Origin: a virus
Reading direction: 5' to 3' (one strand)
Length of the DNA: 64,000 nt
Virus record (IMG/VR): IMGVR_UViG_3300030102_004647
Coordinates: 14,954-78,953 of that record
Position numbers and translations under genes: made by a program. How positions within the stretch are numbered: the stretch's first letter is position 1; the number at the start of each line of letters is the position of its first letter. The notes below the pieces were generated by a model, which saw only the letters and a program-made list of their open reading frames with translations, did no database searches and was not told the DNA's origin. This document shows positions 37,819 to 63,920 of this stretch, in pieces.

Positions 37819-38183
37819 GCACCGGCTCCTCCTTTAGGTACAACAATCTTTGGCTGTCGATCCTGTTCGACACGCTTATCTGCAATCTCTTTCAAGTGTT
37901 CAACCTTCGCATCGATATCAACAGAAAAGATATCGAGCATCTGATCGACCTGCTCGTCCGGCAAAAATGCAACGAGTGCCTTGATCAATGAAGTGGTGAC
38001 CCCTAGCTGCTGCTGTAGTTGCAGCTGAGACTCCTTCATGCCCATCAACACGTTGATCAGGCTCTGGGGATGGACACTGCCCTCTACCGTCATGCCCAAC
38101 TTGACGCTGCCCTCTACCTTTTTGATCGCCTCCATCAAACGGTTTTGACCGTCGATGAACTTCTCTTGATCGAACAATTCCAT
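37815..38183 (-). CDS. Hypothetical protein
   Basis: Coupled ORF with GGAG RBS. Confidence 0.6.
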   Translation of the reverse strand: MELFDQEKFIDGQNRLMEAIKKVEGSVKLGMTVEGSVHPQSLINVLMGMKESQLQLQQQLGVTTSLIKALVAFLPDEQVDQMLDIFSVDIDAKVEHLKEIADKRVEQDRQPKIVVPKGGAGA

Positions 38184-38455
38184 TGAGTGGCTCCTTCCAG
38201 TGCATATGTATGCACTTTCTTGACATGTATTTGTTTGTGTATACCTGCGTCAGCGAGTGCTGACATTAGCTGCCTATGAGTTGCAATGTCGTACCCGCTG
38301 ACATTGAACAACTCGGTGGAGGTCTTGCTTAAAACTGCTCCGATAGTATCCAAGCCTGCACGCTCCAGTGCGTTTTGGGCGCGTGTCCCCAGGCCGGACT
38401 TCTCAAGATATGAGACGGGCTGCTGAATTAGAACTTCTAGCCGTCGAGTTATCAT
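38135..38455 (-). CDS. Stand-alone RNA polymerase alpha-subunit CTD-like protein
   Basis: LGTRAQNALERAGLDTIGAVL..T..EL..V.GY matches the alpha-CTD LSVRxxNcL...I.TI..L pattern. Confidence 0.7.
   Translation of the reverse strand: MITRRLEVLIQQPVSYLEKSGLGTRAQNALERAGLDTIGAVLSKTSTELFNVSGYDIATHRQLMSALADAGIHKQIHVKKVHTYALEGATQWNCSIKRSSSTVKTV
38200..38215. repeat. 16-bp palindrome
   Basis: GTGCATATGTATGCAC. Confidence 0.75.
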
Positions 38456-38501
38456 GCGGCATCTCCATACGCTCACAATGTATCGGGTCAGCGGAGTTGT
38501 G

Positions 38502-38795
38502 CTAGGAGGGTTGCGTTTCCGCAATCCTGGGGAACTCTTCGTTTAGCCTCTCCCACAACTCGCTTCGATGAATTTTGATCAGTTCATGAGCTTGAAACGC
38601 CAACCGACCTCGGTCTTTTGTTTCGCCCAAGTAAGTGACCTCAATAGTGCCTCCCAAAACTCCTTGGAGTTCTGAGCAGATATCCTCGATGCCCTGACCG
38701 CAATGTGCTTTTTCATAAGCGAATGCAATCACCTCTTTAAGAAAGGACAAAGATATCACCACTTTTTCTTCTGGCTTCCGTGACAGTACTAGCAT
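38502..38795 (-). CDS. csrA: Carbon storage regulator CsrA homolog with internal insertion
   Basis: MLVLSRKPEEKVVI...IEVT.L...RGRLAFQA...IKIHRSEL. Confidence 0.8.
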   Translation of the reverse strand: MLVLSRKPEEKVVISLSFLKEVIAFAYEKAHCGQGIEDICSELQGVLGGTIEVTYLGETKDRGRLAFQAHELIKIHRSELWERLNEEFPRIAETQPS

Positions 38796-49042: not shown

Positions 49043-49288
49043 TCAAAACCCCCTTTCAAAACGGGCTTGAAAATCTTTGTTAGCTTCGATACGAGAATCG
49101 AAGTAGTTACCGCCCGCCCAGTTGGTGTCTCCCACCCCAACCCAACCCGTTACAAATCGAGCTTGAGTGGGGTCGGCGGGATGCAGGTCAACGAGAACGA
49201 TATGTCCGGCTCGCGTTCCTTCTTTAGCGGGGATCAGGCTTGAGGCGACGATCATTCCGTCGATCCTTGGTAGGCAGTCTTGTGACAT
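49043..49288 (-). CDS. Early hypothetical protein
   Basis: Carries the conserved TACTTCAACAA leader; FVTGW...W..GNYF. Confidence 0.6.
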   Translation of the reverse strand: MSQDCLPRIDGMIVASSLIPAKEGTRAGHIVLVDLHPADPTQARFVTGWVGVGDTNWAGGNYFDSRIEANKDFQARFERGF

Positions 49289-49314: not shown

Positions 49315-49349
49315 AAAAAAAGGTTGGGGGTGTTTCCACCCCCGCACCT
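49315..49349 (-). terminator. Intrinsic terminator
   Basis: GGGGGUG-GAAA-CACCCCC stem followed by ACC and a U-run. Confidence 0.7.
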
Positions 49350-49350
49350 C

Positions 49351-49548
49351 TTAGCAAACTCTCTCTGGCGAATTGGGTCGATGACCAACGAATTTCCCCC
49401 GCCGTCGAGCGGCACGATTGCCACGGCCAGGGATAAAGCTCGACTTCATCTTCTTTCGCTTTAACGCTCCCCAGCACATGCGGAACGAGTCAGACGAAAA
49501 ACCATACTGTCGGCCAATCCGCACAACAAACTGATAATCCTCTAACAT
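49351..49548 (-). CDS. Early small protein
   Basis: AAGGAG RBS, own promoter and terminator. Confidence 0.6.
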   Translation of the reverse strand: MLEDYQFVVRIGRQYGFSSDSFRMCWGALKRKKMKSSFIPGRGNRAARRRGKFVGHRPNSPERVC

Positions 49549-49589
49549 TGTCTCATCTCCTTGTTGAAGTATTGTTGACTGATGCCCTG

Positions 49590-49617
49590 ATTATACTACC
49601 GTTATCGGCAATGTAAA
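49590..49617 (-). promoter_or_regulatory. Early promoter, CCGATA class
   Basis: TTTACA-TTGCCGATAACGGTAG-TATAAT with a long upstream T-tract. Confidence 0.8.
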
Positions 49618-49639
49618 TCCCTAATCTTAAAAAAAAATA

Positions 49640-50665
49640 AAAAAAAAGTGGGTTCCTACTTCTGAGCAGGGTGTGAGTGAATATGCCCAGAGATTGCGGC
49701 GGCTTGTGCTTTAGGGGCTACGTTCCACTCAGGATCAATGTCCACTTTTGTGCTGCATCAGGTGGGACCGTATTAAGTTCCCAGCTGAGAGGTCTTATTT
49801 CAACCCTTCCCCATGTTCGCTCTGCATACCCCCTTCCGAACCTCTTACGAACTTAGGATCAACTCCCACGTTTGGACACTGCATAGTTTCGCTCCTCCCC
49901 ACAACTGGATTGCACTCTTAGTGCGTGATGCCGAAGCACTCCCGTCACAGTTTGGCCCACTAATTAGCTCCGCACGGCCTGCCAGATTCGCACTGGAGGT
50001 CAGCTTCAAAGATCCGTACTGGTTTATAGCATGAACCCACTCGATTGAATGACTAAGATCTTGAACCGAAACGGGGAGATTTTTGCTGATCAGGCTTATC
50101 AGGAGGCGTGTTCCGCTTTGTCTATCGCTTTCAACCCTCCTGCGAGATTGTCACACGTTCGCGATGTGCGAGTCCCGTCTGGCCGAATTACACGGCTCAA
50201 GATCTTAGCCACTCGGAGTGTATTGGATGGCTGACTCGTAGGGGAGTTCAACCCCCCGACACTGCATCCGAAAGTGAAACGCTGTAATACGTTTCAGGAT
50301 GCGGTTGTTCAACATCGTCATGTCGAACCCCGATTGTCCATTTACTTTCAGAAGTTACATCAGTGCCGCTTGCACAAGCGAGCCATTCAATACACTCCAT
50401 CGAGTGTGAGAGTAGCAGACTCAACGCTTCACTTCTCCGGTGCTTGACTGTAAGAGCTACTCCGGTCGAGGATTTTTAATCTTGCGAATCATGCCTCATG
50501 TTTTCACACTTTGCAGAAGCGTTGAGCTTGCTACTCTCGAAGTTTTGTCGTACTGGAAACCAGCCGGTGGGTACTTCTCCTCGACTCAATCGTCGTGACC
50601 CGTGAGTGATGTCGCTTGTTTCATTCCATGTAAGTGAGTCACTCAACTCACACTCAACTCTCATG
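49640..50665 (-). ncRNA. Giant (~1 kb) multi-domain structured non-coding RNA; GOLLD/ROOL-scale, class unassigned
   Basis: No credible ORF in an otherwise gene-dense genome. Own promoter at 50672-50699. Consecutive domains closed by long helices (50408-50430/50516-50538, 50215-50232/50381-50398, 50051-50068/50193-50210, 49647-49655/50033-50041). GNRA and cUUCGg loops on the - strand; ends in a U-tract. Confidence 0.85.
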
Positions 50666-50671
50666 TTCTTA

Positions 50672-50699
50672 ATATTACCATTATCGGAAGCATTGTCAA
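50672..50699 (-). promoter_or_regulatory. Promoter, CCGATA class, driving the ncRNA
   Basis: TTGACA-ATGCTTCCGATAATGG-TAATAT. Confidence 0.8.
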
Positions 50700-50790
50700 G
50701 AGAAATCCAGACAATCTGAGAAAATAGTTTGCCGATAGCGGTTTAACCCTATAAAACAAGGGAAAACTATTTTCAACTATTTTTAGAAAA

Positions 50791-50806
50791 GTGCAGATGT
50801 CTGCAC
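50791..50806. repeat. 16-bp palindrome (upstream of the ncRNA promoter)
   Basis: GTGCAGATGTCTGCAC. Confidence 0.8.
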
Positions 50807-50845
50807 ATCCGTACAGGTAATTTTTCCGTTTTCGGATGATTGAAA

Positions 50846-51700
50846 TTAGGTTGACACTGTTTCCAAATGATTTAAAAGATCTTGAAGACCTTGTGATCTT
50901 TGCGAACCTCTCAACAAATTATGTCGATCACCTTCGGGATTGCCGGAGGGTAATCTGCAAATGTATCCGATGAGTTTTACTTCACCATAAAACTTTGAAG
51001 GATCTTGAACTGCTTTCTTTCTCATCTCTGGTGCCCAGTGATCCCACAGCCCTAACAAACCAAGTCGGTACAACAACTCTACTTTGTCGGCGTTGCCATA
51101 CATGCAATCTTCGTTGAACTCTTTGTCGTGATGCTTTGTGAATGCAAGTTGTAACTCTGTCATGCCAATGCTTCGGTGTGTTCCGAAATCATATTCTGAT
51201 TTTAGAATCGGCGGGTCGGTCAAAAAAGTATCGATGTTGGCAACTCTCCATGTTGGGAAAGCAAAGTACCCGTCTTCAGGATTGTCTTCTGCTAACATGC
51301 GAAACTGCATCCAACCGTCTTCTCTAAAAAACATCCCGCCGTCTTCGGGGCAACACACATCTGCACCATGATCGAAACTAATATCGAGGCAATGATTGCG
51401 TGCCCGATTTACGTTAGTGATATATTTTAATTTCGCACTGGCAGATGGAAGGCTATCGAACTCCTCACGGAAAAAAGGAATGTGATAAATACATTCTTTG
51501 GGAACTCCGTGTTCATGCAACAAGTTGACGATGTTTATACATTTTCGATTGTCAACGATTCGGTTCAGCAACCACATCTTGCGGGTCATGCCAAACTCTT
51601 TTTCATTCTCAAGGATGTACTTCAAATTCTGAAGCGTCTGCCCCTTCGGATGTCTGGGGGGAAGATCGTTTCCAAGTATTCGCCACAGGTCAAACTTCAT
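50846..51700 (-). CDS. Putative glycosyltransferase-like protein (RILGNDLPPRH family)
   Basis: RILGNDLPPRH..GQTL.NL, WLLNRIVD, N.NRARN, PEDG; last gene of the glyco cluster. Confidence 0.5.
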   Translation of the reverse strand: MKFDLWRILGNDLPPRHPKGQTLQNLKYILENEKEFGMTRKMWLLNRIVDNRKCINIVNLLHEHGVPKECIYHIPFFREEFDSLPSASAKLKYITNVNRARNHCLDISFDHGADVCCPEDGGMFFREDGWMQFRMLAEDNPEDGYFAFPTWRVANIDTFLTDPPILKSEYDFGTHRSIGMTELQLAFTKHHDKEFNEDCMYGNADKVELLYRLGLLGLWDHWAPEMRKKAVQDPSKFYGEVKLIGYICRLPSGNPEGDRHNLLRGSQRSQGLQDLLNHLETVST

Positions 51701-63892: not shown

Positions 63893-63920
63893 ATTATAAC
63901 CCTTATCGGCTAGGTTGCAA
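63893..63920 (-). promoter_or_regulatory. Early promoter, CCGATA class
   Basis: TTGCAA-CCTAGCCGATAAGGGT-TATAAT with upstream A-tract. Confidence 0.85.

Follow-up and report, generated by a model that had tools for sequence, protein, structure and literature searches.

Few large structured RNAs are known from bacteria and phages, and to our knowledge no function has been settled for GOLLD, ROOL or OLE. In T4-like phages, promoter-flanked moron cassettes undergo PeSL-type shuffling. GOLLD is phage-borne, has a length of at least 800 nt with a conserved 3' region of ~400 nt and a less conserved 5' part, and is also found in marine samples (PMC12286853). ROOL, with ~580 nt, is usually located near tRNA islands, and both GOLLD and ROOL form RNA-only assemblies, namely homo-oligomeric nanocages (PMC12286853).

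The locus described here lies in the last 64 kb (the window, i.e. the whole stretch of DNA analysed) of a linear IMG/VR record of 78,953 nt, estimated to be 63% complete. A preliminary description had proposed a structured non-coding RNA of ~1 kb on the - strand with an early-type promoter, either a divergent GOLLD-like RNA or a new class. The RNA itself is borne out by fold statistics, by structure-preserving variation and by the absence of a conserved ORF. As to its class, the data fit a new one, while the GOLLD and ROOL models find nothing at E<=10. The locus is very probably a gene for a structured non-coding RNA, and this RNA is likely to represent a new family.

Comparison with Rfam by cmscan, suggested earlier as a check (GOLLD, ROOL and other families), was carried out and matched no family. 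At the gathering thresholds of Rfam 15, neither the complete record, window included, nor the loci of L002, the one full-length relative, gave a match; permissive Rfam 15 cmscans of the window RNA and the L002 RNA gave nothing credible. A dedicated search with the GOLLD model (RF02032, gathering threshold 150 bits) revealed no match at E<=10 in either record, and neither did the ROOL model (RF03087, 99.1 bits), for which the control genomes were also without a match. Because this dedicated RF03087 search had no positive control, the exclusion of ROOL rests on the cmscans. With ARAGORN, which was run on the window, the remaining 15 kb of the record and the loci L002 and L008, no tRNA was detected, in agreement with the earlier remark that neighbouring tRNAs are absent; GOLLD, in contrast, frequently adjoins tRNA genes or tRNA islands. 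No Intron_gpII or group-II-D1D4 match was found in the RNA region (one chance match of 6.9 bits lies elsewhere) and, in contrast to a group II intron, the RNA locus has its own promoter and U-tract.

The window RNA resembles GOLLD in being a large phage RNA with a conserved 3' region of ~400 nt: the core of its 3' domain (D4) is 97.3% identical to that of L002, compared with 36-92% for the segments of the 5' part, apart from a 9-nt junction strand. This pattern of a conserved 3' and a variable 5' part is a resemblance to GOLLD, not homology. The window RNA family is larger (1,020-1,621 nt compared with at least 800 nt), no covariance model matches it, and the window RNA has no tRNA neighbours. 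With ROOL it shares the character of a large ornate RNA of phages or prophages with no known protein partner; however, the ROOL model does not match, and the long closing helices and the module turnover described below have no ROOL counterpart. The descriptions of GOLLD and ROOL consulted mention no helices of 18-24 bp that close swappable modules. The window RNA is in the same general category as GOLLD and ROOL, not a member of either.

The transcription unit and its surroundings

Almost all genes of the window are on the - strand. The record encodes portal, large terminase, Mu-F-like and tape-measure genes, and further about 12 glycosyltransferase-like genes, a radical-SAM/SPASM gene and methyltransferases. 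Host inference gave no host, the large terminase having ~22% identity to the nearest isolate phages and the CsrA homologs coming from metagenome contigs. The RNA region is also contained in public sequencing runs; these are marine metagenomes and belong to several studies.

On both strands, ORFs of at least 75 aa are absent from 49478-50845; with 1,368 nt this is the largest such stretch in the window, the runner-up having 446 nt. This confirms the initial impression that one of the largest stretches without a credible gene is found here. The longest - strand ORF in the RNA region comprises 62 aa, and an ATG-initiated ORF of this length is located in the leader (50664-50476, -). Its start differs between the window and L002, and three 1-nt indels cross it. 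Reassignment of TGA, TAG or TAA opened no long ORF in the RNA region. The region has no conserved ORF and no coding capacity.

The transcription unit extends over 49629-50699 on the - strand and yields an RNA of ~1,020 nt. A consensus scan places its promoter at 50672..50699 (-), with TTGACA, a 16-nt spacer containing CCGATAATGG and a TG-extended -10 box TAATAT, so that the RNA begins just downstream of TTGACA-16-TAATAT as described before. Transcription probably starts at the 'CAT' at 50665-50663. The promoter is kept in L002. It is one of seven sigma-70-like promoters in the non-structural half of the window (-35 starts at 63920, 60360, 59972, 50699, 49617, 39988 and 39746, all -), in each of which CCGATA lies within the 16-nt spacer and a CAT follows 5-6 nt past the -10 box; CCGATARYGG occurs four times with 0.29 occurrences expected. 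The six other promoters of this family drive A/C-rich leaders, at the end of which an ACAAGGA-type ribosome-binding site, (C)AACAAGGA, precedes an ATG, whereas the RNA-gene promoter drives GAGAGUUGAGUG... and no gene. An antisense action of the RNA on the six family leaders was considered and rejected, as the pairing was overall no better than with shuffled leaders.

The probable 3' end of the RNA, judged from its sequence, is a U9-A-U9 tract (49629..49647, -) directly after the helix which closes D4; the previously proposed end in a helix followed by a long U-tract was thus found again. A compact terminator hairpin is missing: the U-tract is preceded by a helix that closes a domain of 400 nt. 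L002 has the same U-tract, located there behind the 24-bp stem of an extra domain, D6. Immediately past the U-tract, the next promoter of the family (49590..49617, -; TTTACA-16-TATAAT with CCGATAACGG) forms the 3' border of the cassette. The 5' border is a 16-bp palindrome (50791..50806), which a scan for terminator-like sequences placed between the RNA promoter and the gene upstream of it; the palindrome possibly functions as a terminator. The RNA gene is a self-contained cassette, because it has its own promoter and U-tract, is followed at once by the next promoter and is bordered by the palindrome.

The bordering sequence is one of ~9 dispersed copies of the 16-bp near-palindrome GTGCAGACATCTGCAC (50791-50806, 9160, 17724, 31075, 38200, 40894, 57938, 61312 and 63238), which gives 14 strand-matches at two or fewer mismatches, 0.06 being expected. 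Upstream of the RNA gene, a 284-aa protein without Pfam match is encoded at 50846-51700 (-). Its N-terminal RILGNDxPPRH motif is invariant, and its gene is the last of a glycosyltransferase/radical-SAM cluster. The 74 homologs of this protein are from phages and MAGs.

On the downstream side, the window contains an extra gene for 65 aa (49315-49548, -) beside the RNA cassette, which is absent from L002 (compared region L002 5456-5560). It is accompanied by a GC-rich terminator (49343-49326) and is inserted between the promoter at 49617 and the homolog of an 81-aa gene of L002 (start at 49287). The leader GATACTTCAACAA is duplicated, with one copy on each side of the insert, which looks like cassette shuffling at repeated leaders. 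Since the extra gene, the terminator and the duplicated leader adjoin the RNA gene and are missing in L002, the RNA gene is located in a zone of cassette shuffling. As in the moron cassettes of T4-like phages, it is bounded by repeated promoter and leader sequences and stands among small genes which are present or absent; the cargo, however, is a structured RNA of kilobase size and not a small protein gene.

Predicted fold and selection on base pairing

For the window RNA, the calculated MFE is -371 kcal/mol on the - strand and -338 kcal/mol on the + strand, and the z-score against shuffled sequences (49644-50538) is -7.5 compared with -4.2. Both values, together with the G-U cells considered below, uphold the - strand as the sense strand.

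All elements of the predicted fold are given for the - strand. The 5' leader (50539..50665) contains a nested hairpin, GAAGU...ACUUC (50577-50539) around GCUGG-UUU-CCAGU. An outer long-range helix pairs 50653-50646 (GUGUGAGU) with 49678-49671 in the full-length MFE structure of the window RNA and, independently, in that of the L002 RNA; as it is invariant in both RNAs, it permits no covariation test. Domain D1 (50408..50538) has a hypervariable interior and a closing helix of 23 bp with one A-C mismatch (50538-50516 / 50430-50408, 22/23 paired). It is followed by a junction helix, predicted in both RNAs, in which 50406-50399 (CACUCGAU) pairs with 50045-50038 (AUCGAGUG) and which encloses D2 and D3. 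D2 (50215..50398) has an 18-bp closing helix (50398-50381 / 50232-50215) and a multi-branch interior; D3 (50047..50214) is closed by 22 bp including two G-U pairs (50214-50193 / 50068-50047). The 3' domain of ~400 nt, D4 (49644..50046), is closed in the RNAalifold prediction by GAGUGGGUUC (50042-50033) with GAACCCACUU (49655-49646). Both long-range helices have their 3' strands in this domain, the junction helix at 50045-50038 and the outer helix at 49678-49671, and the core of D4 (49693..49874) is the most conserved part of the RNA.

The three long helices of the preliminary description are those closing D1, D2 and D3; all are present, and the third, then given as 50210-50193 / 50068-50051, extends to 22 bp. 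Among the inverted repeats of at least 16 nt in the 64-kb window, they are the longest with more than 80% complementarity. The fourth helix (50041-50033 / 49655-49647), which had been assigned to a 3' domain, has nine Watson-Crick pairs and is predicted by RNAalifold, but it has competitors: the D4 closing helix competes with the junction helix (50406-50399 / 50045-50038), and the full-length MFE structure prefers the outer helix. As the outer helix crosses the D4 closing helix, the two would form a pseudoknot or represent alternatives.

GAGUG is five-fold enriched in the window RNA, with eight sites (50655, 50644, 50397, 50214, 50042, 49941, 49917 and 49730) where 1.6 are expected; none of 500 shuffled sequences reaches eight. 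It opens the closing helices of D2, D3 and D4, and CACUC stands at several 3' ends. D1 of both RNAs and the extra junction domain of L002 instead start with GAGAGUA and end with UACUCUC. Both word pairs may be shared recombination or processing signals. Less remained of the small motifs noted earlier. The T-loop-like word thought to recur was found five times in the window as GGGTTGAA, with 2.4 occurrences expected and 12 of 100 shuffled sequences reaching five; GGGUUGAA is not significant, and two of its three copies (in D2 and D3) are altered in L002. Nor are the tetraloops supported as conserved, the cUUCGg loop being UUUU in L002.

The base pairs were compared between two full-length sequences, which are 85-97% alike in most shared segments and thus below the grade required for R-scape. 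Window and L002 RNA differ by 121 substitutions at shared positions. When both were folded independently, the MFE structures had 188 pairs in common on the - strand compared with 106 on the + strand, with 34 compared with 12 G-U cells. Both bases were changed in eight pairs and one base in seven, and all of these still pair. Introduction of the 121 natural substitutions into the window RNA gave an MFE of -376.6, compared with -370.8 for the window RNA itself, and preserved 182 of 336 pairs, eight of them double-changed. As a control, each substitution was moved to a randomly chosen position that has the same base and belongs to the same segment (n=40). The MFE then was -316.7 +/- 7.8 (best -341.2), a loss of ~55 kcal/mol, with 79 +/- 28 shared and 0.8 +/- 0.9 double-changed pairs; none of the 40 randomised sequences reached the observed values. 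The base pairing of the RNA is under selection.

The changes are spread over the structure. In the inner hairpin of the leader, G-C is replaced by C-G at 50560/50556 while the loop changes from UUU to GAA. The D1 arms contain four double-changed pairs (50530/50416, 50526/50420, 50521/50425 and 50519/50427) and one change from G-U to G-C (50527/50419). D2 shows double changes at 50385/50228, 50337/50299 and 50322/50313, and single compatible changes at 50338/50298 and 50292/50279. G-U is converted to A-U at three sites in D3 (50209/50052, 50196/50065 and 50169/50153) and A-U to C-G at 50180/50077. For D4, there are single compatible changes in the closing helix and a change from U-A to C-G at 49997/49980.

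Module turnover and distribution

L002 (IMG/VR contig 3300029787_000068, marine) was found via the downstream GT25 gene and has a twin, the metagenome contig L016. Its RNA has 1,621 nt compared with ~1,020 nt for the window RNA. Exactly at the D2/D3 boundary it carries an extra domain of 237 nt with its own closing helix of 18 bp (z -5.4), and between D4 and the U-tract it has another two domains, with closing stems of 16+5 bp and 24 bp (z -8.9). The junction helix encloses the extra domain too, spanning 600 nt compared with 369 nt in the window. In a third variant, from the metagenome run X7, the insert at the D2/D3 junction comprises 187 nt, and 14 nt of the D1 interior are replaced by 63. 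The 5' boundary of D3 is thus preceded by 0, 187 or 237 extra nt across the variants, and the D1 interior is replaced in L002. The modules have no second copy in the related loci compared and do not resemble each other beyond the boundary words.

Identity to L002 varies along the RNA. It is 91% in the leader (with the three 1-nt indels), 78-83% in the D1 arms, 36% in the D1 interior, 100% in the 5' strand of the junction (50407-50399), 92% in D2, 84.5% in D3, 87% in the 5' part of D4 and 97.3% (177/182) in the D4 core (49874-49693). The flanking genes are 84% (upstream) and 89-91% (downstream) identical. Between these close relatives, stem-closed modules have been gained, lost or replaced at fixed junctions.

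Among 87 related loci (nhmmer; synteny via the 74 homologs of the 284-aa protein), the RNA is present only in L002 and L016; a 93% relative (P0001) is contained in a 38-kb ENA contig. In relatives whose 284-aa protein is 59% or less identical, the cassette is absent and a protein gene directly follows the 284-aa gene. The cassette is therefore dispensable for the wider group. Two relatives of ~100 kb have no ORF-free gap above 600 nt. A covariance model of the D4 core (R1) found its two source sequences only, in 610 kb of loci and five related phage records. Distant-mode blastn against GenBank phages gave no match. An IMG/VR scan with a 20-mer from D4 and a 19-mer from the junction found the L002 contig only, and one with a doubled 12-mer from D4 added only chance matches in protein tandem repeats; the D4 20-mer does not occur in 185,579 prokaryote genomes. 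We found no description of the RNA in the literature. From these sequence searches, the RNA family appears so far confined to one lineage of uncultured marine tailed phages.

The metatranscriptome library X19 contains one contig of 264 nt over 49657-49915, a ~92% variant, which shows neither strand nor ends. It is a hint of expression only, and could be carried-over DNA. The RNA library X20, whose sample contained the identical phage, gave a contig only over 49321-49475, in the downstream gene; contigs of this kind cannot show absence.

Interpretation of the RNA and alternatives

On balance we favour an independent gene for a modular non-coding RNA of ~1.02 kb which belongs to a new family, is folded and acts in trans. 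On the single point that the folded RNA acts in trans, rather than as a precursor or cis element, we consider the chances to be about even. Host RNA polymerase would transcribe the RNA from the sigma-70 promoter with the CCGATA spacer, together with the genes of the non-structural (early) region. The transcript would form a frame of leader, outer helix, junction helix and the conserved ~400-nt D4, on which self-contained modules would sit, each closed by a helix of 18-24 bp. Acting in trans, it might serve as a scaffold or decoy for a host or phage macromolecule, or build an RNA-only assembly as GOLLD and ROOL do. D4 would be the working core and the stem-closed modules exchangeable accessories. 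A role in host takeover, as put forward previously, is suggested by the placement of the gene only. A rather unlikely elaboration is a modular platform, in which leader, junction helices and D4 would form a conserved core that assembles alone or, in the manner of GOLLD and ROOL, as a multimer and displays swappable modules binding different host factors or defence sensors. If this were true, module swapping at the GAGUG/CACUC junctions would be an arms race carried out on RNA and not on protein.

The locus adds an RNA family of different architecture, with modules closed by long helices and a conserved 3' core. Entire modules distinguish near-identical phages at fixed junctions, and the fold withstands 121 substitutions. 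These natural experiments make the RNA well suited for cryo-EM and chemical probing, and an example on which the evolution of large RNAs by domain insertion can be examined. The weight of the finding is limited by its narrow distribution, in one marine phage lineage with an uncultured host.

After the trans-acting folded RNA, a precursor ranks next, and the remaining explanations are unlikely. In a precursor, the closing helices would be cleaved, by host RNase III for instance, so that every module yields a small structured RNA of its own and the locus represents an array of independent RNAs. Closing helices of 18-24 bp, near-perfect and about two helical turns long, would suit such a cut, the modules come and go independently at the helix bases, and a processing signal common to the modules could lie in the enriched GAGUG and in the CACUC found at several 3' ends. 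Yet one integrated fold is suggested by the long-range helices, of which one connects leader and D4 and another surrounds D2 together with D3, and the modules share no sequence past their boundary words. We regard the precursor as possible, if doubtful.

It is improbable that the RNA is a highly divergent GOLLD or ROOL outside the reach of narrow Rfam models. Its size, its phage origin and the conserved ~400-nt 3' region beside a variable 5' part would agree with GOLLD, which is known from marine samples (PMC12286853), but neither RF02032 nor RF03087 matched at E<=10 in the two records, the permissive cmscans were empty, the 79-kb record and the L002 loci have no tRNA genes, and module-closing helices of 18-24 bp are absent from the descriptions of both families.

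The locus might also be a feature of the DNA, such as an inverted-repeat-rich replication or recombination site, or small inverted-repeat elements piled up at a hot spot for cassettes, its transcription being incidental. This would be in line with the shuffling of cassettes around it, where promoter and leader sequences are duplicated and small genes come and go, and modules flanked by inverted repeats resemble MITEs. However, the G-U pairs favour an RNA of the - strand (34 compared with 12 cells; an advantage of 33-50 kcal/mol), promoter and U-tract frame the structured part exactly, no module has a second copy in the related loci compared, and compensatory changes reach beyond the terminal repeats into internal hairpins. 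We consider this explanation very unlikely.

We attach just as little probability to a cis-acting leader or attenuator of the downstream small genes and the GT25 gene. Here, AUCGAGUGGGUUC would have two alternative partners, CACUCGAU (anti-terminator) and GAACCCACUU, the latter followed by the U-tract (terminator); these two pairings of 50045-50033 are indeed mutually exclusive, and the U-tract directly follows one of them. Against this, a separate promoter of the family, at 49617, serves the downstream genes, and a sensor of 1-1.6 kb would be without precedent. Moreover, in L002 the helix in question is separated from the U-tract by two additional domains.

A CsrB/RsmZ-type sponge for the CsrA of the phage (38502-38795) or of the host would likewise be a chain of hairpin modules of varying number, and the phage encodes a CsrA homolog and has ACAAGGA at the ribosome-binding site of its family-promoter leaders. 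The modules of the window RNA, in contrast, are multi-branch domains of 110-240 nt and not short GGA hairpins. GGA is not enriched (22 compared with 20.9 expected) and lies mostly in predicted stems; AGGA (four in the window RNA, 5.9 expected) and ANGGA are below expectation in both RNAs. We reject the sponge as most improbable.

The least credible reading is a leader-encoded peptide of 50-62 aa, with the remainder as structured 3' UTR: the ATG ORF (50664-50476) has a partly similar counterpart in L002 (46% identity over 50 aa), but the start codons differ, the window ATG lies at the predicted transcript start without a ribosome-binding site, the N-termini are unrelated because the three 1-nt indels shift the frame, and the changes in the shared part follow the RNA pairing (G-C to C-G, loop swap), with three adjacent amino-acid changes.

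The CsrA homolog is encoded on the - strand and matches PF02599 with 42.7 bits. The ACAAGGA motif in the leaders of the CCGATA-family promoters resembles a CsrA site. Adjoining the csrA-like gene, a small protein is encoded at 38135-38524 (-), which has an RNA polymerase alpha-CTD-like match of 23.5 bits, the Pfam cut-off being 23.8.
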